A stretch of DNA of 64,000 nucleotides from the NCBI GenBank assembly GCA_000995185.1, contig LCET01000003.1, positions 6,989-70,988 of the forward strand. Direction: 5' to 3'. Shown here in pieces: positions 3,342 to 48,925 of the stretch. The position numbers were made by a program, and so were the translations under genes. Under the pieces are notes generated by a model, which was given only the letters and a program-made list of their open reading frames with translations, had not been told where the DNA came from and ran no database searches. The stretch is from Candidatus Woesebacteria bacterium GW2011_GWC1_42_9 (GTDB taxonomy: Bacteria > Patescibacteriota > Microgenomatia > UBA8517). Within the stretch, counting starts at the first letter, position 1. Each line of letters begins with the position of its first letter.

Positions 3342-3624
3342 TATTACCCCAATATTATGGTATAAATTGCATGGCGTTTATTATGCCAACACTCATTTGC
3401 GAGTGTATTTATTGGCTGCGGGGATGTCGAGACACTCGATGGATAAACATTATCCAGTTCCCCGCAGGCCAAATCTAAACTCCGGCTTGACCCCATAATG
3501 GTTCTTCGATATAAATGAATTAGCTCGAGCTAACACCTATTTGACTATAAAGAAAGGACGCTTATGAGCTTGTCAGTAGTGTCCATGTTCTGGTTTGTCT
3601 TTTAGGAGGTGATCTAGCTTGTTG

Positions 3625-3669
3625 GTTGGCGGGAATTTCCTTCCACTCTCCCGCCAACTTCCTTTTTTT
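3625..3669 (+). terminator. Rho-independent terminator (10-bp GC-rich stem, 14-nt loop, T7 run)
   Basis: gttggcggga (3625-3634) pairs with tcccgccaac (3649-3658), followed by ttcc and TTTTTTT (3663-3669). Oriented for the + strand. It overlaps the stop codon of the minus-strand gene ending at 3668. Confidence 0.6.
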
Positions 3670-4525
3670 AAAATCTCCAAGAATTCTTGACAAGCTTATA
3701 ATTTTTGATAAAATTCTTTTTAGAAAACGCTCCTGGGAACTCAACTTCATATCCCCCGAAACTTTTTTTGAAATGTGTGAACCCGAGCCATTTTTTGTTT
3801 GGAAAGCGCTTGTCATAGATCCCTTCAAAATCAAATTTTTTAGCTCCTCTTTTTTTGGCCCACAATATCCCTTCCCAGAGGATTTTGTATTGCACTAGAT
3901 TTTTCCTACTTTCTTTATTTGTGAACGCAAACCAATAATATCCAATGTCTTTCGATTTTAAAAACACCGCCCCTGCCTTATTTAGTTTTTGTGTTCTAGA
4001 ACATGATAACAAGAGGCAATTGTCTTCAAATGCTTTTTTGAGGGAAGTAAGATTATTTAGACTTGGGACATAGCGAGAAAAGGGGACTGAGGCTTTCCAA
4101 TTCTTATGAAATTTCTCAATATTATTTTCTTCTATGCACTTTATTCTATGTTCTATGTTCTTTCTTAGCGAATATTTGCAATCTTTTTTTAGTTGTTGAT
4201 ATAGTTTCTTTTGAGTTAGCGTGAGATCTAGTTGCAGGGTCTTACTTGGGGAGTAAGCAGCCGTTTGCTTGAATTTATTATCCATTAACCATAATCCATT
4301 ATTTATTGATTGTGGCTCCACGACGATCCTAAATATTTTGTATTTATTGCTTAATTTTTTAAGATCATGTTCATTTAGTACTGCGTCATAGCGTTGGATT
4401 TTTACAAAATGCCCGATGATTGGAAACTTTTTTATGAAGTAATAAACCCCACTTATTTTTTCCGCCTTCCATCCCAAAGCCCGCATATATTTGGCATATT
4501 GAGGTGTTTGCCTGATATCTGTCAT
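3668..4525 (-). CDS. FemAB-family peptidoglycan interpeptide-bridge aminoacyltransferase (paralog 2)
   Basis: 285 aa with a FemX/FemA-like C-terminal pattern '...YYWFAFTNKE...ILWEGILWAKKRGAKKFDFEGI'. Tandem with the next gene. Confidence 0.55.
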   Translation of the reverse strand: MTDIRQTPQYAKYMRALGWKAEKISGVYYFIKKFPIIGHFVKIQRYDAVLNEHDLKKLSNKYKIFRIVVEPQSINNGLWLMDNKFKQTAAYSPSKTLQLDLTLTQKKLYQQLKKDCKYSLRKNIEHRIKCIEENNIEKFHKNWKASVPFSRYVPSLNNLTSLKKAFEDNCLLLSCSRTQKLNKAGAVFLKSKDIGYYWFAFTNKESRKNLVQYKILWEGILWAKKRGAKKFDFEGIYDKRFPNKKWLGFTHFKKSFGGYEVEFPGAFSKKNFIKNYKLVKNSWRF

Positions 4526-5473
4526 TTAAAAACTCGGTTTGGTGAAGCGCGATTTTATGCGAAGGAGCCTCCATCGAAGATAATCGGCAAAGCGATATGG
4601 CCAGTAAAGTTTACTGGTGACTAAATCCCAAGTGCCGATAAATTCAACCACTTCTGGAGTGTAGCCTTCTTTGAATTTAGTAAATCCCTTGCCTTCTTCT
4701 CTGCCCCATAAATCAAAAGTCTTAAGTTTCAATTTGCGTCCAAGGCGTATCGCTTCCCACATCAGTAAGTTACTGGGCATGAGTCGAGAGTGATTTGGAT
4801 TTGAAGTGGATGCGCCGTATGGGTAGTATAAAAAGCCCTTCCAGGCGAATAAAATCCAGGCGGCAATAATTTCATTTTTATATTTGGCGACGAGCAATTT
4901 TGCAATGCCGGCCTTGTTGAGTACTCCCCACATCAAGCGATGATAGCGCTCGCTATGGGCGTAAAACCTTTGTCTTTTTACAGTTCCTCGGGTTAATCTG
5001 ATGTAGCTATCAAAGGCTGCGCCGCTATTGTCGTTTGTGACAGCCACGCCTTTTTTTTGGGCAAGTCGGATGTTATAGCGAGTTTTGCCAGAAAAACTTT
5101 TTAAGAGGCTCTCTTCGCTTTTGGTTAGATCGATCCAGAAAGTAGTTGGAGTAAAAAGAGTTTTCCCTTTGACACAACCACTTGTCTTAAGGAGTCTTTC
5201 TAAAGAAGCGCTTTTTTTCACAAACGGCTCAAGTTTGATAAAGATTAATTTTTGTTCAGCCGCTACTTTCTTGAGGTCAGTAAGTGATTTTCGTGTTGGC
5301 GCATTTCCCCGGATTAGCATCCCAACTTTTTTGTTTGTAAACGGAGGCTTATGTAGTGTTAGAAGCCCGTGAGGTGTGTAAATTACCTCATTCCCCCAGG
5401 CTTTTCTAAATTCCCCCCATTCATGCGTTTGCAAGGGGTGCGGAGCAAGTTTATTTACTTCTTCGCGGTTCAT
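4526..5473 (-). CDS. FemAB-family peptidoglycan interpeptide-bridge aminoacyltransferase (paralog 1)
   Basis: 315 aa. '...FLYYPYGASTSNPNHSRLMPSNLLMWEAIRLGRKLKLKTFDLWG' resembles the FemX 'YMYAGS...YAVQ...WA...YDLGG' core. Confidence 0.6.
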   Translation of the reverse strand: MNREEVNKLAPHPLQTHEWGEFRKAWGNEVIYTPHGLLTLHKPPFTNKKVGMLIRGNAPTRKSLTDLKKVAAEQKLIFIKLEPFVKKSASLERLLKTSGCVKGKTLFTPTTFWIDLTKSEESLLKSFSGKTRYNIRLAQKKGVAVTNDNSGAAFDSYIRLTRGTVKRQRFYAHSERYHRLMWGVLNKAGIAKLLVAKYKNEIIAAWILFAWKGFLYYPYGASTSNPNHSRLMPSNLLMWEAIRLGRKLKLKTFDLWGREEGKGFTKFKEGYTPEVVEFIGTWDLVTSKLYWPYRFADYLRWRLLRIKSRFTKPSF

Positions 5474-7296
5474 TAATCAAAATTATACTCTTTAACGGGA
5501 GTGTAGGAGAAATTATCGGAAGTGTCTAAAAGATCTTCGGGGATCTCGGATAAGAAGCGTGAAGGGGGATTCGTAATCCTTTGGCCGAAGTAGAGCCTTC
5601 TTTCGGCATAGGTGAGATATAAAACTTCTTTTGCCCGGGTGATCCCGACGTAGGCCAATCTTCTTTCTTCTTCCAATTGCTCGCGGTCAAAAAGCGATCG
5701 AGAGTGAGGGAAAAGCCCTTCCTCGAGGCCAGTGATAAATACAACAGGGAACTCGAGCCCCTTAGCCGCATGAAGGGTCATTAGGGTGACTTTATCGTGT
5801 TCACTTGTAGTCTGCTCTTTTTGGACGAGGGAAATATTTTCTAAAAATTGAAGCAAGTTAGAATGTTCCTGGGCGACGGATCGAAGCTCCTTAATGTTTT
5901 CTAGGTGGCTAAAGTTTTCCTCAGTTTCTTGGGAGTATTTATCCAAATAGTGAGTATTGCTAACTACCGCGTCTAATATCTCAAGGGAGGTTAGTTGTTC
6001 TTGGTCAAGTTTTCCTTTTATCTCTATGAATTTCTCAAAACGCCGTTTCCCAATTTTTTGGGCGCGCTTTAGGGCGACAGTGTCTTTGGGGTTAACCACA
6101 AGCCGGAGGTAGCTTAGGATGTCTTTGATCTCGGCTCGATCGTAAAAACGCGTCCCGCCAACAATTGTGTAGGGGATATCTATATGGAGCATTGCTTCTT
6201 CAATTACCCTGGATTGCGCGTTTGTGCGATAAAGTACCGCAATATCATTCCAATTAAATCCGGTGCGGGCGAGGCCCCCGATTTTTTCTGCAATATAGCG
6301 TGCTTCATCTAAACCATTTTGCGCTTGATAGAGCTTGATGTGCTCCCCATCAGTATTTTTGGTCCAAAGCTTTAAAATTGGATGAGAGGAGTTTTTTGAA
6401 ATGACGGCGTTAGCAGTTGAAAGGATTTTTTGGGTAGAGCGATAGTTTTGCTCCAGATTAATAATTTTTAGATTTTTGTAATCTCGTTTCAAGTAATCGA
6501 TATTTTTATAATCTGCCCCGCGCCAACTGTAGATTGATTGGCTTGCGTCTCCGACGGCAGTGATATTTTCATTCTTGCCGACCAAAAGTTTCGTAAGTTC
6601 ATACTGGACTTTATTGGTGTCCTGCCATTCATCCACCAGGACAAAAGTTAGCTTACTTTGCCATTTGGATAAGATTTTCGGGTTTTTAGTGAACAATAAA
6701 ACGGCTTTGATCAGCAGATCGTCAAAATCAAGCGCCCCCGCTTCTAATAAATATTTTTCGTACTCAAGATATATTTTAAATATTTTTTTCTGCCGGTCGC
6801 CTTGTGCAATTTCGCCATATTGAAGCGGAGTGATCCCTCTGCATTTTGCATCTGAAATTTGAGCGAGCACGCCTCCTGGATTATATGAATCTCGAGACAA
6901 ATTTAAATCGAGAAGGATTTCTCCGATGGCATGCTTCTGATCAGACTCATCGTAAATTATGAAATTTTGTTCAATCCCTATTGACTGTCCCTCAACCCTG
7001 AGAAGTTTTACGCAAAAACTATGAAATGTCCCAGACATCGATGGGACCACCCCGGTTAGTTTAAGAATCCGATCTTTCATCTCAGAAGCGGCCTTATTGG
7101 TAAAAGTCAAAAGCAGGACACTGTCTGGGCTTACCCCTTTTTCTTTCATCAGCCAGGCTGCCCTGTATGTCAGGACCCTCGTTTTCCCAGATCCGGCTCC
7201 GGCCAAAATTAGTAAGGGACCATCTTCGTGGACCACAGCTTGGGCTTGTTGTTCGTTTAGATTTGCGAGTAAAATGGACTTCACGGCAAGTTTCAT
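5473..7296 (-). CDS. pcrA: ATP-dependent DNA helicase, UvrD/PcrA/Rep family
   Basis: 'LNEQQAQAV...GPLLILAGAGSGKTRVLTYR' (Walker A), 'VDEWQDTN', 'LEQNYRST', 'LMTLHAAKGLEFPVVF', 'ERRLAYVGITRA'. Confidence 0.85.
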   Translation of the reverse strand: MKLAVKSILLANLNEQQAQAVVHEDGPLLILAGAGSGKTRVLTYRAAWLMKEKGVSPDSVLLLTFTNKAASEMKDRILKLTGVVPSMSGTFHSFCVKLLRVEGQSIGIEQNFIIYDESDQKHAIGEILLDLNLSRDSYNPGGVLAQISDAKCRGITPLQYGEIAQGDRQKKIFKIYLEYEKYLLEAGALDFDDLLIKAVLLFTKNPKILSKWQSKLTFVLVDEWQDTNKVQYELTKLLVGKNENITAVGDASQSIYSWRGADYKNIDYLKRDYKNLKIINLEQNYRSTQKILSTANAVISKNSSHPILKLWTKNTDGEHIKLYQAQNGLDEARYIAEKIGGLARTGFNWNDIAVLYRTNAQSRVIEEAMLHIDIPYTIVGGTRFYDRAEIKDILSYLRLVVNPKDTVALKRAQKIGKRRFEKFIEIKGKLDQEQLTSLEILDAVVSNTHYLDKYSQETEENFSHLENIKELRSVAQEHSNLLQFLENISLVQKEQTTSEHDKVTLMTLHAAKGLEFPVVFITGLEEGLFPHSRSLFDREQLEEERRLAYVGITRAKEVLYLTYAERRLYFGQRITNPPSRFLSEIPEDLLDTSDNFSYTPVKEYNFD

Positions 7297-7302
7297 TCTA
7301 AC

Positions 7303-8376
7303 ATGCTTGATTCAAAAGAATTGGGAAAGATCAAAAGAAAAATATTGTCCCGCCATTATGTTTTGGTACGGGCTGTCTTAGCCTCGGCATTAATACTTTT
7401 GTTTTTGTTGGTTATTTGGGGGATCCTTGGTTTTTTAAAAAAAACGGTCGTTGGTAAGTACACTGGCATTGCCAGATCTTTCATTGTCACTCCAAAGAAC
7501 CAAATATTTGCAATAGACGGAAAAACAAACATTCTTGTATTAGGAAAAGCCGGTGAAGGAAATATCGCTCCGGATTTGACTGATACGATAATGCTTGCGT
7601 CGGTTGACCATGAAAATGGGACTATAAAATTGGTTTCCTTGCCGAGGGATATTTGGATTGAGGACTTGAGAGCAAAGCTTAACAGTGTTTACTACTGGGG
7701 GGAAGAAAAGAAAGAAGGGGGAGGGATAGTACTGGCGAAATCTGTAGTGGAGGAGATTACTGGCATACCGGTGCACTATGCGGTGGTGGTAGATTTTTCC
7801 GGCTTTAGTGAAATTATTAATACTTTGGGTGGGATCGAGGTAAATGTTGACCGTTCGTTTACAGATGAGGATTACCCCATCCCCGGGAAGGAAGCGGATG
7901 AATGTGAGGGGGACCCAGACTTTTTATGTCGGTATGAGACGATTCATTTTGATGCTGGGACGCAAATGATGGATGGAGCAACGGCACTTAAATTTGTCCG
8001 ATCAAGAAATTCAAAGGACCCAGAAGAGGGGACAGATTTAGCGCGGTCGGTCAGACAGCAGAGAGTGCTGGCTTCGATTAAAAATAAAGCCCTAAGCTCC
8101 GAGACCCTTTTTTCGTTTAGTAAATTAAAAAGCCTTCAGGGGGAGGTGGATAATATGATCGAGACGGATCTTGATGAGCGAGGATTGGCAATTTTGGCCA
8201 GAAGAGCGCTGGAAGCAAAAGACAACTTTTTAGCTATGAGTATGCCAGAGGAGCTATTAATAAACCCACCCTTAAGCCACAAATACGATAATCTTTATGT
8301 ATTTGTCCCAAGGAGCGAAAACTGGGATGAGATTAGGTCTTGGTTTGAAGATGTTTTTGCCAACATTAATTATTAG
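7303..8376 (+). CDS. LytR-CpsA-Psr (LCP) family cell-envelope polymer transferase
   Basis: N-terminal TM, then 'TNILVLGKAGEG...DTIMLASVDHENGTIKLVSLPRD...VVVDFSGFSEIINTLGGIEV', typical of the LCP catalytic domain. Confidence 0.75.
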   Translation: MLDSKELGKIKRKILSRHYVLVRAVLASALILLFLLVIWGILGFLKKTVVGKYTGIARSFIVTPKNQIFAIDGKTNILVLGKAGEGNIAPDLTDTIMLASVDHENGTIKLVSLPRDIWIEDLRAKLNSVYYWGEEKKEGGGIVLAKSVVEEITGIPVHYAVVVDFSGFSEIINTLGGIEVNVDRSFTDEDYPIPGKEADECEGDPDFLCRYETIHFDAGTQMMDGATALKFVRSRNSKDPEEGTDLARSVRQQRVLASIKNKALSSETLFSFSKLKSLQGEVDNMIETDLDERGLAILARRALEAKDNFLAMSMPEELLINPPLSHKYDNLYVFVPRSENWDEIRSWFEDVFANINY

Positions 8377-10645
8377 GATATTACTTATAGGATTGCCCGC
8401 ATTTGAGGTTGATATGGCCGCTTGGATCGCCTGGGCGGAGAGATTAGGGGAGGGAAGCCTCGCGAATTTTTATTCTGATACAGTTTGGACGCAATACACT
8501 CCTGGATTTTTACATGCTTTGTGGATTTTTGAGAGGATTGGGATGGCGAATGAAGTCTTTATAAAACTTTTTGTTTTGTTTGGGGATATTTTCACTGCTT
8601 TCACGGTTTCATATATTGTGCGACTCACGACCAAGAAATGGGGAATGAATGCGGTAATAATATATTTACTCACTCCTCCACTCATCTTCGTTGGATCGAT
8701 CTGGGGACAAATTGACGGGTTTTTGACAATGTTAATTTTATTGGCGGTCTATTTTTTAATAGAGAAGAAAGACCTCCCCACTTCTAGCGTCTTTTGGGCC
8801 CTCTCCTTTTTAGTGAAGCCTCAGGCCTTAGCCGCCCTCCCTTTGTATTTATTAGTGATCCATAAATTTTCGCCAAAGATTGTTTTCAAGTCGGTGATTT
8901 GTAGTTTAGGAACGATATTGATAGTAAGCGCTCCTTTTTTCCCCCGCGACCCCTTATGGGGGTTCCCGAGATTAGTCCTTAAGATGAGCCAGCATTACCA
9001 CTTTGGGAGTATTTTTGCCTTTAACCTATGGGCTCTATTTGGGAAGACTTGGATCCCCGACGGCACGTATTTTATTTGGGGAATAATAATTTATCTTAGC
9101 TCGATTATAATTTTGATTGCCGCCTTTTTGAGATCAAAAAGGACTTCCTTGGAAATGTACTTATTTACAAGCCTTTGTTTTTTAAGCTTTTTTTTATTTC
9201 CCACAAGGATCCATGAGCGCTATTTGTACCCATTTTTTGCGTTCTTTTTGATTTTTATCATTATTTCCGATTTTAAGCATGGGCTTAAAATATATTTTGC
9301 TACCTCTCTTGTCTATTTAATTAATCTTTATCATCCATACGCTTACTACTCAACAAATTATTTGAGGATTGAGCCTCTCCTCTCCCTCACAGGGCACTTC
9401 ACTAAGCCAGCGGCAATATATTTTTTAGGATTGTACTTCTATCTGGTTATTTATCTGGGGAAATTTAAATTGCGGGTTCCCAAAATTGACATAAAGACAA
9501 TTCTGATATTTGCATTTCTTGCAAGGATTTTATTTTTAAATTCACCTCCGAATGAATATTTTGACGAGGTATATCATGCTTTTACTGCAAGAAGGATGCT
9601 TGCCGGAGATAGTTTAGCTTGGCACTGGAGCGGGGGTGCTCCAGAAGGGTTTGCATACGAGTGGACTCATCCCCCACTGGCCAAGCTTGGGATGGTTTCA
9701 GGAATGATTTTACTTGGGGAAAATTCTTTTGGGTGGAGATTTCCGGCGGCCCTTTTAGGGGCAGGCGCGGTTTACCTGGTTTATTTGATTGCGGAGAAAT
9801 TTTTTGGTAAGCGTGTGGCCCTATTGTCTGGAGGGGCATATGCGCTTGATGGATTAGTACTAGTCACAAGTAGGATCGGGATGAATGACGTTTATTTTTT
9901 GTTTTTTATGTTGGCTAGTTTTTATTTGTTTTTGGGCAAAAAACATTTTGTTTCGGCTCTTACCTTAGGGCTGGCGGCGGCGAGCAAATGGAGCGTATTG
10001 TGGTTTTTGCCTGTCCTTGCCCTCACCCATTTTGGACTAAAGCGAAAAATTGTTCGTGATTATGTTTGGTTTTTGATTTTGCCCCCTCTGATATATTTTG
10101 CAAGCTACACCCCCATGTTTTTTGCGGGGCTTGGACTGGCTGATTTTTGGGAGATGCAAAAGCAGATGTGGTGGTATCACACGAGACTTGTAGCGACACA
10201 CCCTTATACTTCTCCATGGTGGAGCTGGCCGATTTTACTGCGCCCGATATATCTTTATGTCGGAAACGATGGGAAGTTAGTTGAAAAGATATATGCGATG
10301 GGGAATCCGGCGATTTTTTGGGGCGGGATAATTGCCGTAATTTACTCGCTTCGAGAGGCAATCGCTTTTCGTGAGAAAAAGTTGCTAGTTATAGTCGGTA
10401 GCTATTTTATTTTCTTTGTTCCCTGGGCACTATCACCAAGAATAATGTTTTTATACCACTACCTCCCCTCAATCCCATTCATGGCAATATTAATTGGATA
10501 TGCACTTAGTAAGGATCAAAAATTGGTTTTGCCTTTTTATCTTTTTACTCTTTTACTCTTCCTATACTTTTATCCGCACTGGACTGGTGTGGCCATCCCA
10601 AAATGGCTTGATGAAACTTATTATTGGTTCCCAAGCTGGAGGTAA
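8297..10645 (+). CDS. Polytopic membrane glycosyltransferase with two GT-C-like halves; the C-terminal half is PMT/ArnT-like (GT39/GT83-type)
   Basis: More than 15 predicted TM helices. The second half carries 'NEYFDEVYHAFTARRMLAGDSLAWHW...THPPLAKL', the signature DE loop of GT39/ArnT-type enzymes. Start uncertain (overlaps the LCP 3' end; alternative Met codons at 8327 and 8351). Confidence 0.55.
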   Translation: MYLSQGAKTGMRLGLGLKMFLPTLIIRILLIGLPAFEVDMAAWIAWAERLGEGSLANFYSDTVWTQYTPGFLHALWIFERIGMANEVFIKLFVLFGDIFTAFTVSYIVRLTTKKWGMNAVIIYLLTPPLIFVGSIWGQIDGFLTMLILLAVYFLIEKKDLPTSSVFWALSFLVKPQALAALPLYLLVIHKFSPKIVFKSVICSLGTILIVSAPFFPRDPLWGFPRLVLKMSQHYHFGSIFAFNLWALFGKTWIPDGTYFIWGIIIYLSSIIILIAAFLRSKRTSLEMYLFTSLCFLSFFLFPTRIHERYLYPFFAFFLIFIIISDFKHGLKIYFATSLVYLINLYHPYAYYSTNYLRIEPLLSLTGHFTKPAAIYFLGLYFYLVIYLGKFKLRVPKIDIKTILIFAFLARILFLNSPPNEYFDEVYHAFTARRMLAGDSLAWHWSGGAPEGFAYEWTHPPLAKLGMVSGMILLGENSFGWRFPAALLGAGAVYLVYLIAEKFFGKRVALLSGGAYALDGLVLVTSRIGMNDVYFLFFMLASFYLFLGKKHFVSALTLGLAAASKWSVLWFLPVLALTHFGLKRKIVRDYVWFLILPPLIYFASYTPMFFAGLGLADFWEMQKQMWWYHTRLVATHPYTSPWWSWPILLRPIYLYVGNDGKLVEKIYAMGNPAIFWGGIIAVIYSLREAIAFREKKLLVIVGSYFIFFVPWALSPRIMFLYHYLPSIPFMAILIGYALSKDQKLVLPFYLFTLLLFLYFYPHWTGVAIPKWLDETYYWFPSWR

Positions 10646-18138: not shown

Positions 18139-18858
18139 ATGAATAAGCCTTTAACTGATAGACAAACACAAATAATTAAGGCGCTTATAGATGAGTATAT
18201 CGAGACCGCGGAGCCGGTTGGCTCTGCTTCCCTCGAGAAAAAATATAATCTTGGGATTAGCCCTGCGACCATTAGAAATGAAATGGTTAATCTAACAAAG
18301 CTAGGGTATCTTCGACAGCCGCACACTTCTGCCGGCCGCACTCCCACCTCCATTGCAATGAAGTTCTATATAAATCAATTAATGGATGAAAAAAAAATGA
18401 GCGTAGTAGATGAGGTGCAAGCCAAAGAAGGCGTTTGGGATGCGCGGGAAAATTTTGATAAATTAATGGACAAGGCAACTTTTGAATTAGCAGATAAGAC
18501 AAAATCGCTGGCGGTGGCCGCCACAGATGATGGGACCACTTGGACTCACGGGCACTCCTTAATTTTTGAATGCCCCTTCACTCTAGATGTCTTTCAGAAT
18601 ATTTTTTCAATCCTTGAAAGTCGCGATATGGTCAAGAAATTATTTTTTGAGCACCTGACCGGCTTGACCCCGATTGAGGTTATTTTCGGTGAAGAATTGG
18701 GCTGGGATTTTTTTGATCCTGTTGGAATTGTCGCCACGAGATTTTCCACTCAGGGGCATGAAGGAGCAATTGGAGTGATCGGGCCAATGAGATTAAATTA
18801 TCAGACAGTTATCCCGGTAGTTAGGTATTTTCGAGATCTGATCCAAGGCTTGGAATAA
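18139..18858 (+). CDS. hrcA: Heat-inducible transcription repressor HrcA
   Basis: 'LTDRQTQIIKALIDEYIETAEPVGSASL' is the HrcA N-terminal winged HTH. CIRCE lies upstream and grpE-dnaK downstream. Confidence 0.85.
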   Translation: MNKPLTDRQTQIIKALIDEYIETAEPVGSASLEKKYNLGISPATIRNEMVNLTKLGYLRQPHTSAGRTPTSIAMKFYINQLMDEKKMSVVDEVQAKEGVWDARENFDKLMDKATFELADKTKSLAVAATDDGTTWTHGHSLIFECPFTLDVFQNIFSILESRDMVKKLFFEHLTGLTPIEVIFGEELGWDFFDPVGIVATRFSTQGHEGAIGVIGPMRLNYQTVIPVVRYFRDLIQGLE

Positions 18859-27373: not shown

Positions 27374-30300
27374 ATGAAAGTAATTAAAAAGAGTATTAAT
27401 CTCGGAGATCGAGAATTAACCCTCACTATCGGAAAATTAGCTGAACAAGCCCAAGGGGCAGTACTCGCTCAATATGGCGAGACTGTTGTGTTGGCCACAG
27501 TTACTTCTTCTCGTCTCAAGGAAGATTTGGGGTATTTCCCTCTTACCGTAGAATATCAAGAGAGGCTGTATGCTGGTGGGAGAATAAAAGGTAGCCGGTG
27601 GGTAAAGCGGGACGGTAGACCTGCCGATGACCATATTCTTTCTGCACGTCTCATTGATAGATCCATCCGCCCTCTTTTTCCGAAAGAATATGATAATGAA
27701 GTCCAAGTTGTTGTAACTGTCCTTTCTGTGGACTTGAAGAATGACCCGGTAGCAATTGCCCCTGTTGCCGTTTCCGCCGCGCTTGCTCTCTCCCCAATTC
27801 CCTGGCTTGGACCGATAGGATCGGTAACCGTTGGGATGAGTGATGGTAAGTTTGTTGCTAACCCTCAAAATGGCGATCTTAAAAATTCAAAAATGGAATT
27901 GGTTGTTTCATCCACCGACAAAGCCATTGTGATGATTGAAGCTGGTGCAAATGAAGCCAGTGAAGAAGATATTTTGGGAGGTGTCGAGTTTGCATATAAA
28001 GAGTCCAAAAAGATAATTAAATTTATTAGTGACTTAGTCAAGGAGGCGGGGTCTAAAAAGGAAGCAATTGAGAAGGAGAAAGCTGACCCTAAGCTAGAAT
28101 CTAAAGTCAAAAAGATCGTTTCAAAGGAGTTGGAAAGCTTAGCCAAAAAAATTGCCGCTAAGGAAGCAAGCTTTGGGGATCTTGATGTGTTGAAAGCTTC
28201 CATGGTGGACCATGTGGGGGAAGAGAATTTGGAAAAAGCAGTTGAACTAATCGAGGATCTCTTTAAAGAGGAAGTTAGATCGATTATTTTGGGCGGGAGC
28301 AGGCCTGACGGTAGAAAATACGAAGAAATAAGGAAGCTCAGTTCCGAAGTGAGTGTGTTGCCAAGGACCCACGGGTCAGCGATTTTTAAGCGCGGGTCTA
28401 CACAGGCGCTTACAGTCACCACATTAGGCGCGCCGTCACTAGGGCAACTAATTGAATCGGCCGAAGGGGAGGAAGAAAAGCGCTATATTCATCACTATTC
28501 TATGCCGCCATATGCCACAGGGGAGACGGGAAGGATTGGGTCACCCGGGAGGCGGGAGATTGGGCATGGTGCACTGGCCGAGCGAGCCTTGATTCCAGTA
28601 ATTCCTGGCAATGAAGAGTTTCCATACGCGATTTATTTGGTTAGTGAGATTATGAGTTCAAACGGATCAAGTTCAATGGCGTCGGTCTGCGGCTCGACAA
28701 TGTCTTTGATGGACGCAGGTGTTCCCATCAAAAGGCCAGTTTCGGGGATTGCAATGGGACTTGTGATAGACGCGAAGAAGATCGCAATTTTGTCCGATAT
28801 TGCTGGGATTGAGGACTACTACGGCGATATGGATTTTAAAGTTGCAGGATCAGTAAATGGCATTACCGCGCTTCAGCTTGATGTTAAAACTTTGTCACTT
28901 ACCCCAGACATATTGAAAAAGGCCCTTTCTCAGGCAAAAGCAGGACGCGCTGAGATATTAAAGTCTATGCTTGCGACCATTGATAAAGCCCGGGAAAAAG
29001 TCTCGGAGCATGCACCGAAAATAAAATCAACGAAGATTGATCCAAGCAAAATTGGTGAGGTCATTGGTCCGGGGGGAAAGACTATTAAAAATATTATCGC
29101 GACTACCGGGGCTGATGTTGACGTTGAAGATGATGGAACTGTCAGTGTTTCTGGGATAGATGGCGAGAAGGTAAACGAGGCACTCGCTTGGGTAGAGAAT
29201 CTGGTAAAAGAAGTTGAACCAGGTGAAATTTATGAGGGAACAGTTAAGAGAATAGAATCTTTTGGCGCTTTTGTCGCAGTGCTTCCTGGTAAAGAAGGGC
29301 TTGTGCATGTCTCTGATATGTCTGAAGGATTTGTGGAAGATGCGAATAAGGTAGTTAAATTAGGCGACAAAGTGCAGGTTAGAGTTAAGGAGATTGATAA
29401 CCTGGGGAGGATTAATTTATCAATGATTTTGGACCCAAGCAAAGAGAAAAAAAGGCCCCCTCAGAGAGATTTCCGCAAGGGCGGTCAAAGGAGAAGTTTT
29501 AATCGTCCCAGAGTGGGAAGGTCTGGCTCTGGACCGCATTTCCCGACAAGTAGATTAGTCTCGCAAAGGAGAGAAAAAGATAAAGGCTCACTGAAAATAA
29601 AAGGCGGCTCGGTGTTTAATATCAAAAACTTGGACGTCGAGGTGCCTCTCGGCCGGCTGGTTGCGGTAACCGGCGTATCGGGCTCGGGCAAGTCGTCGTT
29701 CCTCTACGAAATTTTGCACGAAAAGACTTTTTTGCCGGAACTAGATCGGATAGGCCGTTATGTTGACTGGATAGTTGCTCTTCCTTGGGAAAAGCGGACT
29801 AAAGACATCTTAGATATTCAAAAAGCTAAAGAAACAATGGATAAAAATCATTATGGATTGCTGGCACTAAAAGATCGAGTGATTGAGTATATGTCAGTCA
29901 TGATACTTAAATCTCAAAGTCGGGAAATTGCCCGTGCGCCGATATTGTGTTTTGTGGGATTAGTGGGGACTGGCAAAACAACAATTGCGGCGTCTATCGC
30001 GGAAGCATTGGGAAGAAAATTTGCAAGGATCCCATTTGGAGGGATGGGAGATCCGTTGGACCTTCGTGGGCAATCAAAAGCACATGCAGAAGCTGAACCA
30101 GGAAAGGTCATTAAAGCCCTTCGCAGCGCCGAGAGCAAAAACCCGGTGATCCTTTTGGATGAAATTGATCGAGTGACTGACGAAGGCAGAGCTTCGATAA
30201 TGGGTGTATTAGTCGAGCTTTTAGATCCCAGGCAAAACCAAGCTTTTGTGGACCATTATATCGATTATCCTTTTGATTTGTCTGAAGCTATTTTTATCGC

Positions 30301-30640
30301 GACTGCTAACAATACGACCGGGATAGCTACAGCAGTGATGGATAGGCTTGAGCCGATCACCATGCCAAGCTATACAGACCAAGAGAAAATTGAGATTGGA
30401 CGAAAATATTTATTACCCCGGGCATTATTGGAATCAGGAATCCCCAATGGAGCAATAGTTTTCGATGATGGTGTTTGGCCGCAAATTGTTCGCCCCTTGG
30501 GGTTTGATGCCGGGATCAGGACTTTGGAAAGGACTATTAAAGGTGTAGTGAGTAAAGTTGCGAGAATGGTTGTGGAAGGAAAGACCCAAACAATTACAAT
30601 TAATGGAGAAAATGTCAAAGAATATATGCCTCAATGGTAA
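27374..30640 (+). CDS. pnp: Polynucleotide phosphorylase (PNPase) continuing in frame into a UvrA-like P-loop fragment and a protease-less Lon-like AAA+ module
   Basis: Residues 1 to about 700 form a complete PNPase: two RNase PH domains, KH ('IGEVIGPGGKTIKNI'), S1, and a basic tail. An approximately 45-aa segment follows, 'NIKNLDVEVPLGRLVAVTGVSGSGKSSF', resembling the start of the second ABC domain of UvrA. The final approximately 340 aa, 'YVDWIVALPWEKR...HYGL...ILCFVGLVGTGKTT...ILLDEIDR...LLDPRQNQAFVDHY...FIATAN', are collinear with the end of the Lon N domain and its AAA+ domain. No Lon protease domain. Confidence 0.75.
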   Translation: MKVIKKSINLGDRELTLTIGKLAEQAQGAVLAQYGETVVLATVTSSRLKEDLGYFPLTVEYQERLYAGGRIKGSRWVKRDGRPADDHILSARLIDRSIRPLFPKEYDNEVQVVVTVLSVDLKNDPVAIAPVAVSAALALSPIPWLGPIGSVTVGMSDGKFVANPQNGDLKNSKMELVVSSTDKAIVMIEAGANEASEEDILGGVEFAYKESKKIIKFISDLVKEAGSKKEAIEKEKADPKLESKVKKIVSKELESLAKKIAAKEASFGDLDVLKASMVDHVGEENLEKAVELIEDLFKEEVRSIILGGSRPDGRKYEEIRKLSSEVSVLPRTHGSAIFKRGSTQALTVTTLGAPSLGQLIESAEGEEEKRYIHHYSMPPYATGETGRIGSPGRREIGHGALAERALIPVIPGNEEFPYAIYLVSEIMSSNGSSSMASVCGSTMSLMDAGVPIKRPVSGIAMGLVIDAKKIAILSDIAGIEDYYGDMDFKVAGSVNGITALQLDVKTLSLTPDILKKALSQAKAGRAEILKSMLATIDKAREKVSEHAPKIKSTKIDPSKIGEVIGPGGKTIKNIIATTGADVDVEDDGTVSVSGIDGEKVNEALAWVENLVKEVEPGEIYEGTVKRIESFGAFVAVLPGKEGLVHVSDMSEGFVEDANKVVKLGDKVQVRVKEIDNLGRINLSMILDPSKEKKRPPQRDFRKGGQRRSFNRPRVGRSGSGPHFPTSRLVSQRREKDKGSLKIKGGSVFNIKNLDVEVPLGRLVAVTGVSGSGKSSFLYEILHEKTFLPELDRIGRYVDWIVALPWEKRTKDILDIQKAKETMDKNHYGLLALKDRVIEYMSVMILKSQSREIARAPILCFVGLVGTGKTTIAASIAEALGRKFARIPFGGMGDPLDLRGQSKAHAEAEPGKVIKALRSAESKNPVILLDEIDRVTDEGRASIMGVLVELLDPRQNQAFVDHYIDYPFDLSEAIFIATANNTTGIATAVMDRLEPITMPSYTDQEKIEIGRKYLLPRALLESGIPNGAIVFDDGVWPQIVRPLGFDAGIRTLERTIKGVVSKVARMVVEGKTQTITINGENVKEYMPQW

Positions 30641-42029: not shown

Positions 42030-42058
42030 GTCCCGCTTTCCATAGCGGGAGTTTTGTG
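42030..42058 (+). promoter_or_regulatory. Leader hairpin plus U-tract (attenuator-like) in the rpoB 5' UTR
   Basis: tcccgct-ttccat-agcggga followed by gttttgtgt, lying between the promoter and the rpoB start. Confidence 0.4.
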
Positions 42059-45000
42059 TACTTCCGAGATGGCCCAAACAAAAAGACGTAATTTTGGAAA
42101 AATAGAAAAGAAACTGCCGGAGCTGGATCTATCTCTTGTCCAAAGAGAGTCGTGGCAGTGGTTTTTAACGGAGGGAATTGCTGAAGAAATATCCCAAATT
42201 ACCCCGATAGACGATTTTACAGGAAAGAATTGGCAGTTGATCTTAGGAGAGCATGTGCTTGAAAAACCAAAGATTACTCCGGGAAGAGCTATTGAAAAAG
42301 GGCTTACTTTTGCGGCTCCATTTAAAATTAAGACCACTTTAATAAATAAAAGAACAGGAAAGAGCATTGAACAAGAAGTCTTTTTTGGCAACCTTCCTCA
42401 AATGACTTCCGTTGGAACCTTCATCATTAATGGAATAGAGCGCGTAGTAATTAATCAGTTGGTTCGTTCTCCTGGAATTTATTTCTCAGGGGAGACGGAT
42501 CGTTCTAGTGGAAGGATGCTGCATCAGGCAGAAATAAGGCCTCTTCATGGATCATGGCTTGAATTTGAGGTAAGTAAAAATGATGTTATTTCAGCAAGAA
42601 TTGATAAAAGGAGAAAAATGCCGGCGACTATTTTGCTTCGTGCAATGGGTCTTGAGTTTGATAAAGATATTAAAGATGCCTTTTCTAAGGTGGATAGTGA
42701 TCCTGATCACTCCTACATCTTAAAGACAATTGAGAAAGATCAAACAAAAAATCGAGATGAGGCACTGCTGGAAATTTATAGGAAAATGCGACCGGGGGAG
42801 CCGGCAGTTTTGGAAAATGCGCAGAATCTTTTTGATACTTTGTTCCTAAACTTTAGGCGTTATAATCTTGGAAAAGTAGGGCGCTATAAAATTAATAAAA
42901 GACTGGGGATTAGCGTTCCGAACGATAAGCAGAATTGGGTATTAACCAAGGAAGATGTTGTTGCAACGGTAGCTTACCTTATTGGTCTCCAGAATGAGGA
43001 AGGAAGGACTGATGATATTGATCATCTTTCAAATAGGCGTTTGAGGAGAGTGGGGGAGCTAGTCGCAACGCATGCTTTTAGGGCAGGGCTTTTGAGACTA
43101 GAAAGATCGGTAAAGGAAAAAATGAGCCTTATTTCCCCCGACGATATCCCACAGCCGCAGTCATTAATTAACGCTAGGCCCTTGATCGTAGCAATAAATG
43201 AATTTTTCCGATCAAATCAACTCTCCACAATATTAGATAACACTAACCCATTGTCAGAAATAGATAATTTGAGAAGGGTATCTGTCCTTGGCCCGGGTGG
43301 GATCAACCGAGAGAGGGCATCGTTTTCTATTCGTGACATTAACTCATCCCAATATGGAAGGATAGATCCCGTTCGGTCTCCGGAGGGACCAAATATTGGA
43401 TTAGTGACATATCTGGCGCTTTATGCACAGGTAAATGAATATGGATTTCTTGAGGCTCCTTACCGGGTCGTCAGGAAGGAAAAAGTGGGGGGTATTGAGA
43501 GGGCCAGAGTTACAGACGAAATGGTATATCTTGCCGCCGATGACGAAGAAGAGCAGTACATCACCCATAGCGGGATAAATATTGGCAAGACGGGATTAAT
43601 CGAAGATGAACGCGTTCCTTATCGTTATAAAGGTGCTTTTTTGGAAGGCTCTTCTAATCTGATTACATTAATAGATCTCACTCCGCGACAGGTTTTCGGT
43701 GCGAGTGCTGCTTTAATTCCATTTTTGTCACATGACGAGGGAAATCGTGCCCTGATGGGCTCAAATATGCAGTGCCAAGCAGTGCCTCTGGTGCATCCCG
43801 CTTCTCCGATAGTTGGTACTGGCATGGAGGGCGTGATAGCTGAAGCAATGGGCGGGGTGATTCGGAGTGGACACAGAGGAAAAGTGACCTATGTGGATGC
43901 TCAAAGGATAGAGGTCTCGCTCGATAAAAAAGTGGAGGCAATAGACGACCCTAATATGGAATTATCTGATAATCATAAAACAATTATTTATCATTTGTCC
44001 AAATTTAAAAAGACCGCCGCTTCGACTTCTTATAATCAAAAGGCGCGGGTGCAGGTTGGTCAGAAAGTTAACAAGGGTGATCTTCTTGCTGATGGACCAA
44101 GTTCAGATCAAGGAGAGTTGGCTTTGGGCCAAAACCTTGTGATTGCTTATACAAATTACGAAGGATATGGTTTTGAGGATGCGATACTAATTTCTGACCG
44201 TTTGGTAAAAGATGATCTTCTAAAATCGATCCATATTAAGGAATATCAAGCAGATTTGGTGGAAACCAAGCTTGGGCCGGAGGAGCTGACCCGAGATATT
44301 CCAAATGTTGCCGAGACGGAGCTTGCCAACCTAGCAGAGGATGGTATTGTCGTCATAGGTGCAGAAGTGAGTCCGAATGATATTTTGGTCGGGAAAATAG
44401 CCCCTAAAGGAGAAACAGAACTTACTAGTGAAGAAAGGCTTCTTCGGGCAATTTTTGGAGAGAAGGCGCGAGAGGTACGGGATACTTCGCTTCGTGTTCC
44501 TCATGGCGAAGGAGGAATTGTGGTTGATGTGCAAATTCTTGACAAAGAAAAAGGAGATGAGCTTGGCCCGGGAGTAATTAAAAGCATTATTGTTAAAGTG
44601 GCTCAGACGAGGAAGGTAAGCGTAGGAGACAAATTGGCTGGGCGCCATGGAAATAAGGGTGTGATTGCAAAAATCATGTCAACTTCCGATATGCCATATC
44701 TTGAGGATGGCACACCGGTTGATATTATCATTTCCCCTCTTTCTGTCTTAGCGAGGATGAATTTGGGCCAACTTTTGGAAAGCTACCTTGGCTGGGCACT
44801 CTATAACAAGGGAGAAAAGGGACAAATTCCAGTTTTTGACCAGATCAGCGAAGAAGTGATTATCAAGGAGCTTCAAAGCGTTGGGATGAGCGAGACTGGG
44901 AAAACGAGACTTTATGATGGACGGACCAGTGAACCGCTTAAGGAAGATACGGTTGTAGGAATTGGCTACATCATGAAATTAAGACACATGATTGAAGATA

Positions 45001-48000
45001 AAACCCACGCGAGATCGACTGGTCCTTATTCGCTTGTTACCCAGCAACCTCTTGGTGGGAAGGCCCAGATGGGGGGTCAGCGCCTTGGAGAGATGGAGGT
45101 CTGGGCACTAGAAGCGCATCGGGCGGCCTATACTTTGCAGGAAATGCTGACCTTGAAATCCGACGACATTGTCGGACGAGCACAAGCATTTGGGGCGATA
45201 GTGAAAGGTGAGCCTATCCCCGAGGCCAAAGTCCCGGAGAGTTTTAAGGTTCTTATTCGTGAGCTTAATTCGCTAGGGTTAGCAATAAATGTCGAGGGGA
45301 TTTTAAAAGAAGAGACTGAAGAAAAGATTGAAAATTCCACGGATCCACTGGTTAGCATGAGAGGCCTAAAGGAAATTAATGGTCTACAAATAAAATTAGC
45401 ATCTCCTGAGGAAATACGCGCCTGGTCAAGGGGTGAGATCCTCAAGCCCGAGACAATAAATTATAGAACCCTTAAGCCGGAAAAAGACGGCCTTTTTGAC
45501 GAAAGGATTTTTGGTCCGATCAAAGACTGGGAATGCTATTGCGGTAAGTATCGAAGGATCCGTTATAAGGGAGTGGTTTGCGATAAATGCGGAGTGGAAG
45601 TGGCCGAGTCGAGGGTCCGACGAGAGAGAATGGGGCACATTAGCTTGGCAGCCCCGGTTGCTCATGTTTGGTACTTTAAGGGAGCACCTTCAAAAATTTC
45701 TGTCCTTTTAGACCTTCCTCCAAGAGCGGTGGAGCAGGTAGTGTATTTTGCTCGCTATATGGTGATGAGCGTTGACGACAAGGGCCGAAAAGAAGCCTTA
45801 AAGTCGCTTAAGAGTGTTTGTGAAGAAAAACTTTTGGAGGTAAAAGAGATTTATCAGGAAAAGAAGAAAATTGTTAAAGAAGATGCGGTTGTTAGAAAAG
45901 AAAAAACTCGCGGTCGAATAAAAGATAAAGAGCAACAGGCGCTTGCCATAAGTGAAATTGATTTAGACGAAAGGAAAAAAATACAGACCTTGGCAGAGGA
46001 AGAAAGATCTACCCAGGAAAAGACTAAGGAGTTATTTAATCGGCTTGAAGATTTGGTAAAAGGGGTATTCCAGTTTGGGTTTCTTACTGAAGATGAGTAC
46101 GACAAGCTTGATTTCTATGGAGTGTCTGGGTTTGTTGATGTAAAGATGGGAGCTGAGGCGATAATGGAAGCGTTGAATAATATTGATCTCAATAAGCTTG
46201 CCAAAAATATCCGTGAAGAGATTAAGATTTTAAAGAAGGGCAAGAATAGCCAGAGATATGTAAAGCTAACCAAGAGGTTGAAAATTGTGGATGGGATGAG
46301 GCTTGCCAAAGTTGATCCTGTTTGGATGATAATTAAGGTACTCCCGGTTCTTCCCCCTGATTTAAGGCCGATGGTTCAGTTATCTGGAGGAAGATTTGCA
46401 ACAAGCGACTTAAATGATCTTTATCGCAGGGTTATCAATCGAAATAATCGCTTAAAGCATTTGATCAATTTGGGTGCTCCGGAGATTATTTTGAGGAATG
46501 AGAAGAGGATGCTTCAAGAGTCGGTGGATTCTTTGATTGATGCTTCTCAAAGAAAGGCAACCAGGAGAGGCAGAGGGAGGCAACCATTAAGATCTCTTTC
46601 AGATATGCTTAAAGGAAAACAGGGAAGATTCCGACAAAATTTGCTTGGGAAGCGGGTGGATTATTCTGGAAGGTCAGTAATAGTAGTGGGACCTGAATTA
46701 AAGCTAACTCAGTGCGGGCTTCCAAAAGAAATGGCATTGGAGATGTTTAAGCCTTTTGTTCTTCGAGAAATGATCGTGAGAGGAATAGCTCCGAATGTGA
46801 AGTCGGCAAAGAATATGCTTGAAAAACGTCCGGCTGGGGTCTTTGATATTTTGGAAGAGATTACTAAAAATCACCCCGTTTTGCTAAATCGCGCGCCAAC
46901 ATTACATAAGCTGGGCATTCAAGCCTTCTTCCCTGTATTGATTGAAGGAAATGCAATAAGGATTCACCCCGCGGTGTGTAAGGGCTTTAATGCTGACTTT
47001 GATGGAGATCAGATGGCGGTCCACGTTCCCCTGTCAGAGAAAGCCAAAAAGGAGGCAGTGGAATTGATGATGTCTGACAAAAATCTTTTGAGGCCTGCAG
47101 ATGGATCTCCAATGTCGGCTCCTGCTTCCAAAGAAATTGCCCTTGGTGTTTATTATCTGACAAGTGTGGACACAAGAATAAAGCCAAACAGTGCCGTTTT
47201 TTCTAATCCAGAAGAAGCAATCTTTGTGTATCAAATAGGGAAGATTGAATTAAGACAAATGATAACTGTGCGGGTCGGCACAGGCCTCTTGGAGACCACG
47301 GTAGGAAGATTGATCTTCAACGAGGTATTGCCGGATGCTTTGGGTTATGTTAACGAGAATATAAGTTCTGGGGTGATTACAAATCTGGTTACGAGAGCCT
47401 TCAATGAGATCGAACACGAGAGGGTAATTAAGATGATTGATAAGATTAAGGATCTGGGGTTTGTTGGGGGGACTTTGTCGGGCTTGTCATTTGGAATATC
47501 TGATGCGGCGATATTGCCTGAAAAGTCAAAAATTATAGCAAAGGCAAACAAAAGGGCCACAGAAATAGAGGAGAATTTTTCTCAAGGGTTAATTACCGCC
47601 AATGAAAAGAAAAGACTAGTAGAATCAGTGTGGATTGAGACCACTGAAGAGATCGCCGATAAAACTTGGGAGATAGTTGACCCTAATAGTTCAGTGAGAC
47701 TTGTAATTGACGCCAAAGTTGGACGTACTTCTAGAGAGCAAATAAAGCAATTGGCTGGGATGAGAGGTCTTGTAGTCGATCCTCTCGGAGAAATTGTGGA
47801 GTTACCTATAAAGTCAAATTTCAGAGAGGGGCTTTCCGTGTTTGAATATGTTAATTCTTCGAGAGGGTCAAGAAAGGGATTATCTGACACTGCTCTTAAA
47901 ACGGCAGATGCTGGGTATTTGACACGAAGGCTCGTAGATGTTGCTCACGATTTGATAATTAGGAATGAAGATTGTGACACCAAAGAGGCTTTACCAATAT

Positions 48001-48140
48001 TTAGAAGTACCAGACCGAAGGCGTTTGAAAGCCGCATTATGGGTAGGTTCGCAGGAGAAGATGTTAAAGATGATATTCGGGTGATTGTAGCTAAAAATGA
48101 GCTTATTTGGATCTCTCTGATAAGGAGCCAGTCGAAATAG
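42054..48140 (+). CDS. rpoB-rpoC: In-frame fusion of RNA polymerase beta (RpoB) and the N-terminal 900 or so aa of beta' (RpoC)
   Basis: RpoB ('[14 protein letters not shown]...' to '...LAINVEGIL') runs through a 30-aa linker directly into RpoC ('[41 protein letters not shown]...[21 protein letters not shown]...[14 protein letters not shown]'). The likely start is the ATG at about 42069. Confidence 0.85.
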
Positions 48141-48925
48141 GTACTCCCGTGGGGGTAGTTGCCGCGCAATCTATCGGCGAGCCAGGGACTCAGCTGACCA
48201 TGCGTACGAAGCACACGGGAGGGGTTATAGGGATAGATGTTACCCAAGGATTGCCTCGTGTTGAAGAATTATTGGAGGCAAGATTGCCAAAATCTTTGTC
48301 TCCAATTTCAGAGCTTCCAGGGAAAGTAAAGATCAGCGAGCAAGAAGGAGGATGGAATGTGACTGTCACTAATTCTTCTGCTAAGCCTAAAGAGACGCGG
48401 GAATATATAATCCCAAAGACTAGTAAACTTGTGGTTGAAGCAGGTCAGTTGATTGAAGCGGGAACCCAGCTTTCTTCAGGATTTTTGGATCTTCAAGAAA
48501 TTCTCCTGATAAGAGGGCTTAGGGCGGCGCAGGAATATTTGGTTGAAGGTTTGCAGTCGGTATATGAATCACAAGGGATACCAATAAACGATCGCCATTT
48601 TGAAGTTATAGTGAGGAAGATGAGCGATGAAGTAAAAGTTGTGACATCTGGCGACACCTCTCTCTTGCCCGGGGAACAACTTAGCCGAGCGAGATTTGAG
48701 GAAGAAAACGAATCAGTATTAGCACAAGGAGGAGAACCTGCTAGTGCAAGACAAGTTATCCTAGGGATTACCAAAAGGGCTTTGTTTACGGAATCCTGGC
48801 TCTCGGCAGCAAGCTTCCAGCAAACAACGGATGTTCTGGCTAAATCCGCACTCATTGGTAGAAAAGATAAGCTTATCGGCTTGAAAGAAAATGTGATTAT
48901 CGGGAGGCTTATTCCTGTAGAATAG
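48107..48925 (+). CDS. rpoC: RNA polymerase beta' C-terminal segment (trigger loop to C-terminus) in the -1 frame relative to the upstream rpoBC ORF
   Basis: '[24 protein letters not shown]...[21 protein letters not shown]...[14 protein letters not shown]'. It overlaps the upstream ORF by 34 nt. Adding one T to the TTT run at 48106-48108 would merge the two frames. Confidence 0.8.

Follow-up and report, generated by a model that had tools for sequence, protein, structure and literature searches.

Chimeric contigs and scaffold misassemblies are described from metagenomes, where a short segment of a co-occurring organism is joined at a chance similarity and lesions of about read size lie at break-points. 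In living cells, a short foreign patch can take the place of resident DNA where one of its ends shares microhomology; both short-patch double and homology-facilitated illegitimate recombination, in natural transformation, are extremely rare events. An open reading frame (ORF) in the window, a 64,000-nt stretch of Candidatus Woesebacteria bacterium GW2011_GWC1_42_9, had been interpreted in a sequence-only reading either as a genuine RNA-degradosome/AAA+ fusion or as an assembly artefact. A real fusion would tie a 3'-5' exoribonuclease to an AAA+ motor in a new architecture. The described proteins to which its parts compare are PNPase (TIGR03591), UvrA (TIGR00630), and LonA (TIGR00763; B. subtilis LonA, PDB 3m6a).

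Three protein parts in one reading frame

Positions 27374 to 30640 (+ strand) form a single uninterrupted ORF of 1088 aa. The PNPase part matched NCBIfam NF008805 over aa 6 to 684 (890 bits) and scored 888 bits with TIGR03591, against a cut-off of 525; two RNase PH domains, KH, and S1 were all found by Pfam, and a basic tail is present as well. A UvrA piece at aa 729 to 784 corresponded to UvrA profile positions 604 to 659 (E of 6e-13 for the whole protein and 9e-14 for the C-terminal part alone); with TIGR00630, for which the cut-off is 730, it scored 47 to 50 bits over positions 603 to 656. The Lon module, aa 789 to 1073, matched TIGR00763 positions 291 to 571 (E of 5e-89) as well as Pfam AAA and Lon_lid. 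No S16 protease domain was found in this module by the Pfam and NCBIfam profiles (no match to Lon_C). All three matches are far above chance level, and they confirm the earlier assignment of the parts as PNPase, a UvrA Walker A piece, and a protease-less Lon AAA+ module.

Stripped of the artefact, the PNPase part is an ordinary member of its family with the full architecture; the gene proper has 741 codons and a stop of its own. The sequence-only reading had placed the end of PNPase at about codon 700. The organism's true PNPase has 741 aa, which moves the start of the foreign part to codon 739 (nt 29589), and the basic tail as far as ...RREKDKG belongs to pnp itself (the reference tail reads ...RREKDKGFRR, followed by the stop). 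The foreign part, 45 codons long (~52 aa with the shared RREKDKG), comes from a real uvrA gene, where it lies at the start of ABC domain II with its Walker A motif, but spans only ~55 of ~940 profile positions. It lacks the signature motif, Walker B, the Zn modules, and the first ABC domain and so cannot work as UvrA or as an ATPase.

The locus in independent assemblies

Several public assemblies of this Woesebacterium, made independently, agree with window positions 668 to 62108 at ~100% identity; the exceptions are three lesions measuring 110 to 156 nt. Positions 18152 to 40179 match contigs from six independent assemblies or samples at 100%, save at 29589 to 29724 and between 34657 and 34658, and positions 668 to 21552 and 40055 to 62108 are ~100% identical to public contigs, save between 48106 and 48107. 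Three such lesions set against at most one single-nucleotide polymorphism (SNP) across ~61 kb make a pattern unlike natural divergence.

In these assemblies the real gene order is rpsO, pnp (741 aa plus stop), a 23-nt spacer, a separate gene for a 345-aa Lon-like AAA+ protein, and rnj. Authentic pnp occupies 27374 to 29588 (+) of the window, with codons 1 to 738 of 741, at 100% identity to contigs L004, L005, L006, L010, and L011; its last three codons (FRR) and stop are missing. Authentic sequence of the stand-alone Lon-type AAA+ gene resumes at 29725 and runs to 30640 (+), comprising codons 42 to 345 plus the stop (100% identical to L004-L010), without the conserved N-terminal 41 codons. The complete reference gene lies at 6970 to 8007 of L004 and encodes 345 aa, in keeping with a family whose proteins measure 345 to 350 aa. 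The RNase J gene is intact at 30634 to 32289 (+; NCBIfam RNase J, 540 bits). The two genes overlap by 7 nt, between the start of rnj and the stop of the AAA+ gene, and exact copies of the RNase J protein occur on 19 public contigs.

The pnp stop, the 23-nt spacer, and an AAA+ start of its own are present in every public contig spanning the boundary (L004/L010, L005, and L006); L011 stops 75 nt beyond the first junction and agrees with the reference version up to there. The junctions of the window at pnp and the AAA+ gene were not found in any public assembly covering the site. In all five relatives, whose AAA+ proteins are 70 to 83% identical, a pnp stop is followed by a spacer of 22 to 73 nt and a separate AAA+ gene with the conserved N terminus. 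The sequence-only reading had named homologous genomes in which pnp ends on its own, with lon elsewhere, as a sign of misassembly; a terminated pnp followed by a separate Lon-like AAA+ gene is the arrangement both in independent assemblies and in all five relatives. The proposed genuine fusion does not stand against these separate genes, which in the same-organism assemblies lie between flanks 100% identical to those in the window. An exact look-up returned no record of the 1088-aa protein. This is not counted as evidence, because the homology index also missed the organism's own 345-aa AAA+ protein (best match, 83% identical); proteins of this Woesebacterium species seem to be absent from that index.

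A foreign uvrA patch and two further lesions

The foreign patch of 136 nt at 29589 to 29724 (+) corresponds to codons ~587 to 631 of a Parcubacteria-type uvrA, including Walker A of ABC domain II. It stands in for 156 nt of true sequence, namely, the end and stop of pnp, the 23-nt spacer with its ribosome-binding site, and the GTG start and first 41 codons of the AAA+ gene. The patch is identical at 135 of 136 positions to donor contigs L019 and L025-L029 (base 29590 is unlike all five donor contigs) and is absent from all Woesebacterium contigs covering the locus. The donor uvrA sits in a normal uvrB-uvrA-uvrC operon on a contig with a GC content of 54%, versus 43% for the window. Donor and recipient occur together in one assembly, ERZ27254728 (L026 and L005), and in one BioProject, PRJNA268031. 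Judged from this base-level match, what reads as a UvrA piece is an actual stretch of uvrA from a different organism. A scan of the GTDB species representatives found neither the patch nor the shared pnp tail among them. A donor inside the window was also considered and rejected: the window holds no intact uvrA or lon, and no 16-mer of the patch recurs there.

At the first junction, a base-by-base comparison of reference, window, and donor showed that the pnp tail and donor uvrA resemble each other by chance over 24 nt (23/24), at 29565 to 29588 (+). The shared stretch, AAAGGAGAGAAAAAGA[T/C]AAAGGCT, encodes RREKDKG in both genes, and the longest exact run in common with the known donor contigs there is 16 nt. 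The second junction, between 29724 and 29725, is blunt and without microhomology. Both junctions are in frame.

The other two lesions are blunt losses. Comparison with L004 showed that 110 nt (L004 12025-12134) are missing between 34657 and 34658 (+). As a result, ftsK (704 aa) runs on in frame into the HTH_25 gene that follows it (207 aa), and an 879-aa ORF arises at 32630 to 35269. Comparison with L013 showed that 112 nt (L013 8053-8164) are missing between 48106 and 48107 (+), within the fused rpoBC gene. This loss shifts the frame of rpoBC and deletes a beta-prime segment with a conserved Cys motif, while rpoBC is intact in L013 (2322 aa). Since the third lesion breaks an essential gene, the window as written is not a faithful copy of a living genome. 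The rpoB-rpoC fusion itself is genuine.

The positions of the lesions coincide with contig ends elsewhere. In three other assemblies, L007, L008, and L009 are whole contigs that begin at reference positions 7007 to 7017 and stop at 12025 to 12051, and L011 ends at 7010. These ends fall inside the lesion intervals 6936-7091 and/or 12025-12134, and the lesions therefore lie at assembly break-points. Lesions of this class were also seen, relative to clean re-assemblies, in an original Rifle "ANAN16" scaffold from a sister organism.

We conclude, with a probability of about 0.92, that the 1088-aa ORF is an in silico chimera made in assembling or scaffolding a groundwater metagenome and not a real fusion. 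The artefact that the sequence-only reading had offered as its alternative is borne out by the independent assemblies and by the donor uvrA match. Nothing points to the existence of a PNPase-UvrA-Lon protein in any cell. A contig ending in the pnp tail would have been wrongly run on for 136 nt into the co-occurring uvrA, passing through the 24-nt similarity, and the extended end would then have been set directly against the following contig, beginning at AAA+ codon 42, without any gap marker in between. The reading frame would have been kept across the join by chance, and two more joins of the same kind would account for the loss of 110 nt and 112 nt. A path through a de Bruijn graph was rejected as the sole mechanism: the second junction and both deletions share no k-mer with their partners, and a scaffold join with a dropped gap must be assumed for them. 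Counting against the chimera are also the 16-nt exact run at the first junction, which is short for common assembler k values, and the one patch base unlike all five donor contigs.

Like described metagenome chimeras, the locus combines a short co-occurring foreign segment with lesions of about read size that are missing from independent assemblies, one of them ruining an essential gene. It is unlike them in that the frame is kept at both patch ends, mimicking a domain fusion, and in that no N marks a gap. Both patch junctions and the ftsK join are in frame, as a selected fusion would be. We do not take this as a sign of selection, however, because each junction has about a one-third chance of being in frame, the third lesion shifts the frame, and only an in-frame case would have been noticeable (ascertainment bias).

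The in-frame junctions could also be explained by a real but rare strain variant, in which uvrA of a neighboring Parcubacterium was integrated by microhomology-mediated short-patch illegitimate recombination, producing a true PNPase-AAA+ fusion protein. The donor is present in the same community, the first junction has its 24-nt (23/24) microhomology, and a later mutation could account for the one patch base at odds with all donor contigs. Nevertheless, such a variant is very improbable. Microhomology is lacking at the second junction, the absence of SNPs elsewhere relative to the common strain argues against an independently evolving lineage, the junctions occur in no public assembly covering the site, and the fusion lacks the 41 N-terminal residues that are conserved in the AAA+ family. 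Recombination also leaves unexplained the two further blunt lesions of ~110 nt, one crippling rpoBC, and the match of the lesions to contig ends of other assemblies.

A slightly less probable account still places the change after assembly and not in the assembler itself, as the result of automated error correction or gap-filling, of stripping out runs of N, or of deliberate editing. No homology is found at three of the four junctions, which are blunt, and a Rifle-type sister scaffold has N10 placeholders at comparable lesions where the window contains no N. This account is a variant of the artefact explanation more than a true rival, and the microhomology at the first junction together with the co-occurring donor suggests a read- or graph-driven error over arbitrary editing. 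A genuine conserved PNPase-AAA+ multidomain family, for which the uninterrupted ORF in the window is the sole support, is already refuted, as the best 120 homologues of the C-terminal part are all stand-alone proteins of 338 to 352 aa and the genes are separate in all five relatives and in all same-organism contigs covering the site.

With the 1088-aa ORF read as an assembly chimera, the window, and presumably its source genome too, contains at least three scaffold-join errors that make or break ORFs. For this reason no long "fusion" ORF there (pnp-AAA+ or ftsK-HTH) deserves trust, and it would be wrong to take the broken rpoBC for a pseudogene.

The stand-alone Lon-type AAA+ gene

The biological interest that remains lies in the genuine rpoB-rpoC fusion and in a conserved gene that stands by itself between pnp and rnj and encodes a Lon AAA+ module alone. 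Six Woesebacteria/Microgenomates loci were inspected, one from this organism and five from relatives, and in each of them the latter gene comes directly after pnp. Among solved structures, the best match of the authentic AAA+ protein was LonA 3m6a (E of 5e-75), and the protein was also aligned to 6v11. Like LonA, it covers the pre-AAA+ helical region through the AAA+ lid and has Walker A (GTGKT), Walker B (LLDEID), the sensor-1 region (ATANN), and Lon_lid. Unlike LonA, it has neither an N-terminal LON/PUA-like substrate-binding domain (the match starts at profile position 291) nor an S16 Ser-Lys protease domain (it ends at position 571 of 795). In six of six family members inspected, the pore-loop-1 motif of LonA, RRTY(V/I)G, gives way to S(K/R)xH(A/L/P)E, with His where LonA has Tyr. 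At 300 to 304 bits against a cut-off of 608, the protein is not a TIGR00763 equivalog. No relevant description of a protease-less Lon AAA+ protein from Patescibacteria turned up in a literature search.

Given its position, it is conceivable, though rather unlikely, that the stand-alone AAA+ protein serves as an accessory ATPase of an RNA decay machinery of PNPase and RNase J, acting through separate subunits. Such a role would amount to the functional coupling proposed in the sequence-only reading, without a gene fusion.

Composition of the 1088-aa open reading frame and its public counterpart

The 1088-aa open reading frame (ORF), very probably a PNPase-UvrA-Lon chimera, runs uninterrupted through the window (27374..30640, + strand). 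The sequence-only reading had described a PNPase followed by a UvrA stretch and a protease-less Lon AAA+ module, and profile searches agreed with this make-up for the window sequence as given. A complete PNPase (RNase PH twice, KH, and S1; aa 6-684; NCBIfam, 888-890 bits) precedes a piece matching UvrA profile positions 604-659 (aa 729-784; E about 1e-13) and a part matching LonA profile positions 291-571 (aa 789-1073; E 5e-89; Pfam AAA and Lon_lid). No S16 protease domain was found in the ORF by profile searches.

Public contigs of the same Woesebacterium were compared with the window. The window's neighboring proteins (RNase J, the 275-aa protein upstream of rpsO, EF-G, and a 294-aa protein) have exact matches in many public assemblies. 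By BLASTN, 18152-40179 was 100% identical, with two exceptions, to contigs from ENA (ERZ27254732, ERZ27254728, ERZ27254729, and ERZ909590 [SRR1658465]), Logan (SRR5855237), and JGI (3300025012). Contigs L015 and L016 were 100% identical to 668-21552, and L013 matched 40055-62108 bar one SNP and one exception. The SNP (44224; window A, L013 C) is the only one in the ~61 kb compared. The differences are lesion (a), at 29589-29724, where 136 nt stand in place of 156 nt of public sequence; lesion (b), at 34657|34658, where 110 nt are missing; and lesion (c), at 48106|48107, where 112 nt are missing.

In the public contigs, pnp encodes 741 aa (C terminus, ...RREKDKGFRR*) and is followed, after a 23-nt spacer, by a separate GTG-initiated 345-aa gene (N terminus, VEETDPIAPLIAKVRSAQIPEGLSQKTLERLNQLTALRQSPTFLPELDR...). 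Lesion (a) takes away the end of pnp (its last 3 codons and stop), the whole spacer, and codons 1-41 of the second gene. The patch is 20 nt shorter than what it replaces, which brings the pnp and AAA+ frames into register.

Origin of the patch and proposed mechanism of the join

When JGI metagenome contigs were scanned for the patch by exact pattern, one match was obtained, L019, in which 158/160 nt of window 29565-29724 are identical within a uvrA ORF (845 aa as called on public contigs; P0121/P0122). This donor uvrA lies in a normal uvrB-x-uvrA-uvrC operon, on a contig of 54% GC versus 43% for the window, and its nearest named relatives (82-89% identity) are from Kaiserbacteria, Adlerbacteria, and Paceibacterota. 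The donor thus differs in Patescibacterial class from the window's AAA+ relatives, which belong to Woesebacteria/Microgenomates. Donor and Woesebacterium occur in a single assembly, ERZ27254728 (contigs L026 and L005), and also share BioProject PRJNA268031. The donor uvrA is present on five contigs that do not differ from one another across the patch. All five have G at window position 29590, where the patch has A; this single difference is synonymous and may reflect either strain variation in the donor or a read error where a chimeric end had low coverage.

The donor UvrA sequence at junction 1 (29588|29589) is ...PDERREKDKGSLKIKGG..., and the pnp tail is ...SQRREKDKGFRR*. Immediately before this junction, the pnp tail and donor uvrA DNA are identical at 23/24 nt, although exact matching to the known donor contigs there extends over at most 16 nt. 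DNA comparison found no similarity between the sequences joined at junction 2 (29724|29725), and likewise none at the joins of deletions (b) and (c). No N is present at any of the window's joins.

Three separate assemblies each yielded a complete contig (L007, L008, and L009) running from 7007/7017 to 12025/12051 in the numbering of public contig L004, and L011 ends at 7010. These ends fall within the interval of lesion (a) (6936-7091) and on the left margin of that of lesion (b) (12025-12134), so independent assemblers break exactly where the window is wrong. This coincidence is expected if the window's source scaffold was made by joining contigs there.

All three assemblies gave the same ~5.0-kb contig (AAA-rnj-68aa-ftsK), with breaks at about 29640-29650 and 34657 in the window. 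The shared breaks suggest strain heterogeneity or a graph branch flanking this segment in the natural population.

The sequence-only reading had weighed a genuine fusion against an artefact. The patch is foreign, its junctions are missing from independent assemblies, and relatives keep separate genes. These features, together with co-occurrence of the donor, the coincident contig ends, and the other lesions, indicate an assembly or scaffolding chimera (probability, about 0.92). A real recombinant strain carrying the fusion is very improbable. We infer that a contig end may have been falsely extended through the 24-nt similarity and that the extended contig would then have been joined to the next without a gap. 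Such a mechanism leaves unexplained the 16-nt limit on exact matching, the N-less joins, and the difference at 29590.

Lesions in ftsK and rpoBC and in a sister scaffold

Lesion (b) creates an artefactual in-frame FtsK-HTH_25-Glucodextran_B fusion of 879 aa (32630-35269) from ftsK (704 aa) and the next gene (HTH_25; 207 aa). Every public contig covering the site retains the lost 110 nt, which hold the C-terminal 28 codons of FtsK with their stop, the intervening spacer, and codons 1-4 of the downstream gene.

The rpoB-rpoC gene fusion is genuine: one ORF encodes both the Rpb2 domains (up to aa 1080) and the Rpb1 domains (aa 1106 onward), not only in the window (within 42054-48925) but also in L013, an independent 298-kb contig whose gene is intact (2322 aa; 2015..8983). 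Relative to L013, lesion (c) is a blunt loss that causes a frameshift and a 37-residue deletion, takes out the conserved beta-prime Cys motif, and leaves fragments of 2028 and 272 aa (42054..48140 and 48107..48925). Since a frameshifted RNA polymerase is incompatible with a faithful genome copy, the window demonstrably carries nonbiological lesions, and the broken rpoBC is to be regarded as an assembly lesion rather than a pseudogene. Contig L014 (JGI) lacks 40 nt at a different site, ~26 nt upstream of lesion (c); the rpoBC region is therefore assembly-fragile.

In a sister Woesebacterium, the original Rifle scaffold (L022; ANAN16-1_SAMN03203000 scaffold_344) has N10 gaps, blunt 30-40-nt losses, and an inserted block, which break pnp, ftsK, and a 275-aa gene relative to two clean assemblies (L020/L021). 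These defects are of the same class as the window's. Gene-level anomalies in this data lineage merit routine comparison with reassemblies.

The stand-alone Lon-type AAA+ gene

In reality, an ordinary pnp precedes a separate Lon-type AAA+ gene (L004 6970..8007; in part, window 29725-30640), which belongs to a stand-alone 345-350-aa family also found on L001, L002, L020, and L023. The C-terminal part of the ORF has thousands of homologues, the best 120 of which are all stand-alone (338-352 aa). A check of relatives for fused or separate genes, proposed with the original observation, found them separate: in 5/5 (L001, L002, L003, L020/L021, and L023; 70-83% identity), pnp has a stop codon and a separate AAA+ gene follows after 22-73 nt. 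All five conserve the pnp tail motif GPHFP(T/A)SR and the AAA+ N-terminal helix region that is missing from the window, and in four of them pnp ends in F(G/R)R*, as in this organism.

The AAA+ gene lies directly downstream of pnp in 6/6 inspected loci, one from this organism and five from relatives (Woesebacteria/Microgenomates). A 7-nt overlap with the following gene occurs in this organism, where that gene is rnj, and in its closest relative (L002/L003). Synteny extends over the entire block nusA-infB-x-rpsO-pnp-AAA-(udg)-rnj-ftsK, and adjacency by itself therefore does little to support a functional link. No description of this protease-less Lon-type AAA+ family turned up in a literature search. 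Compared with LonA (B. subtilis; 3m6a), the protein aligns from the helical region before the ATPase through the lid (E 5e-75) but has neither the LON N domain nor the S16 protease domain, and its score against the LonA profile is 300 bits, below the cutoff of 608. Its pore loop reads S(K/R)xH(A/L/P)E in 6/6 family members inspected, in contrast with RRTY(V/I)G in LonA, a Tyr-to-His change.
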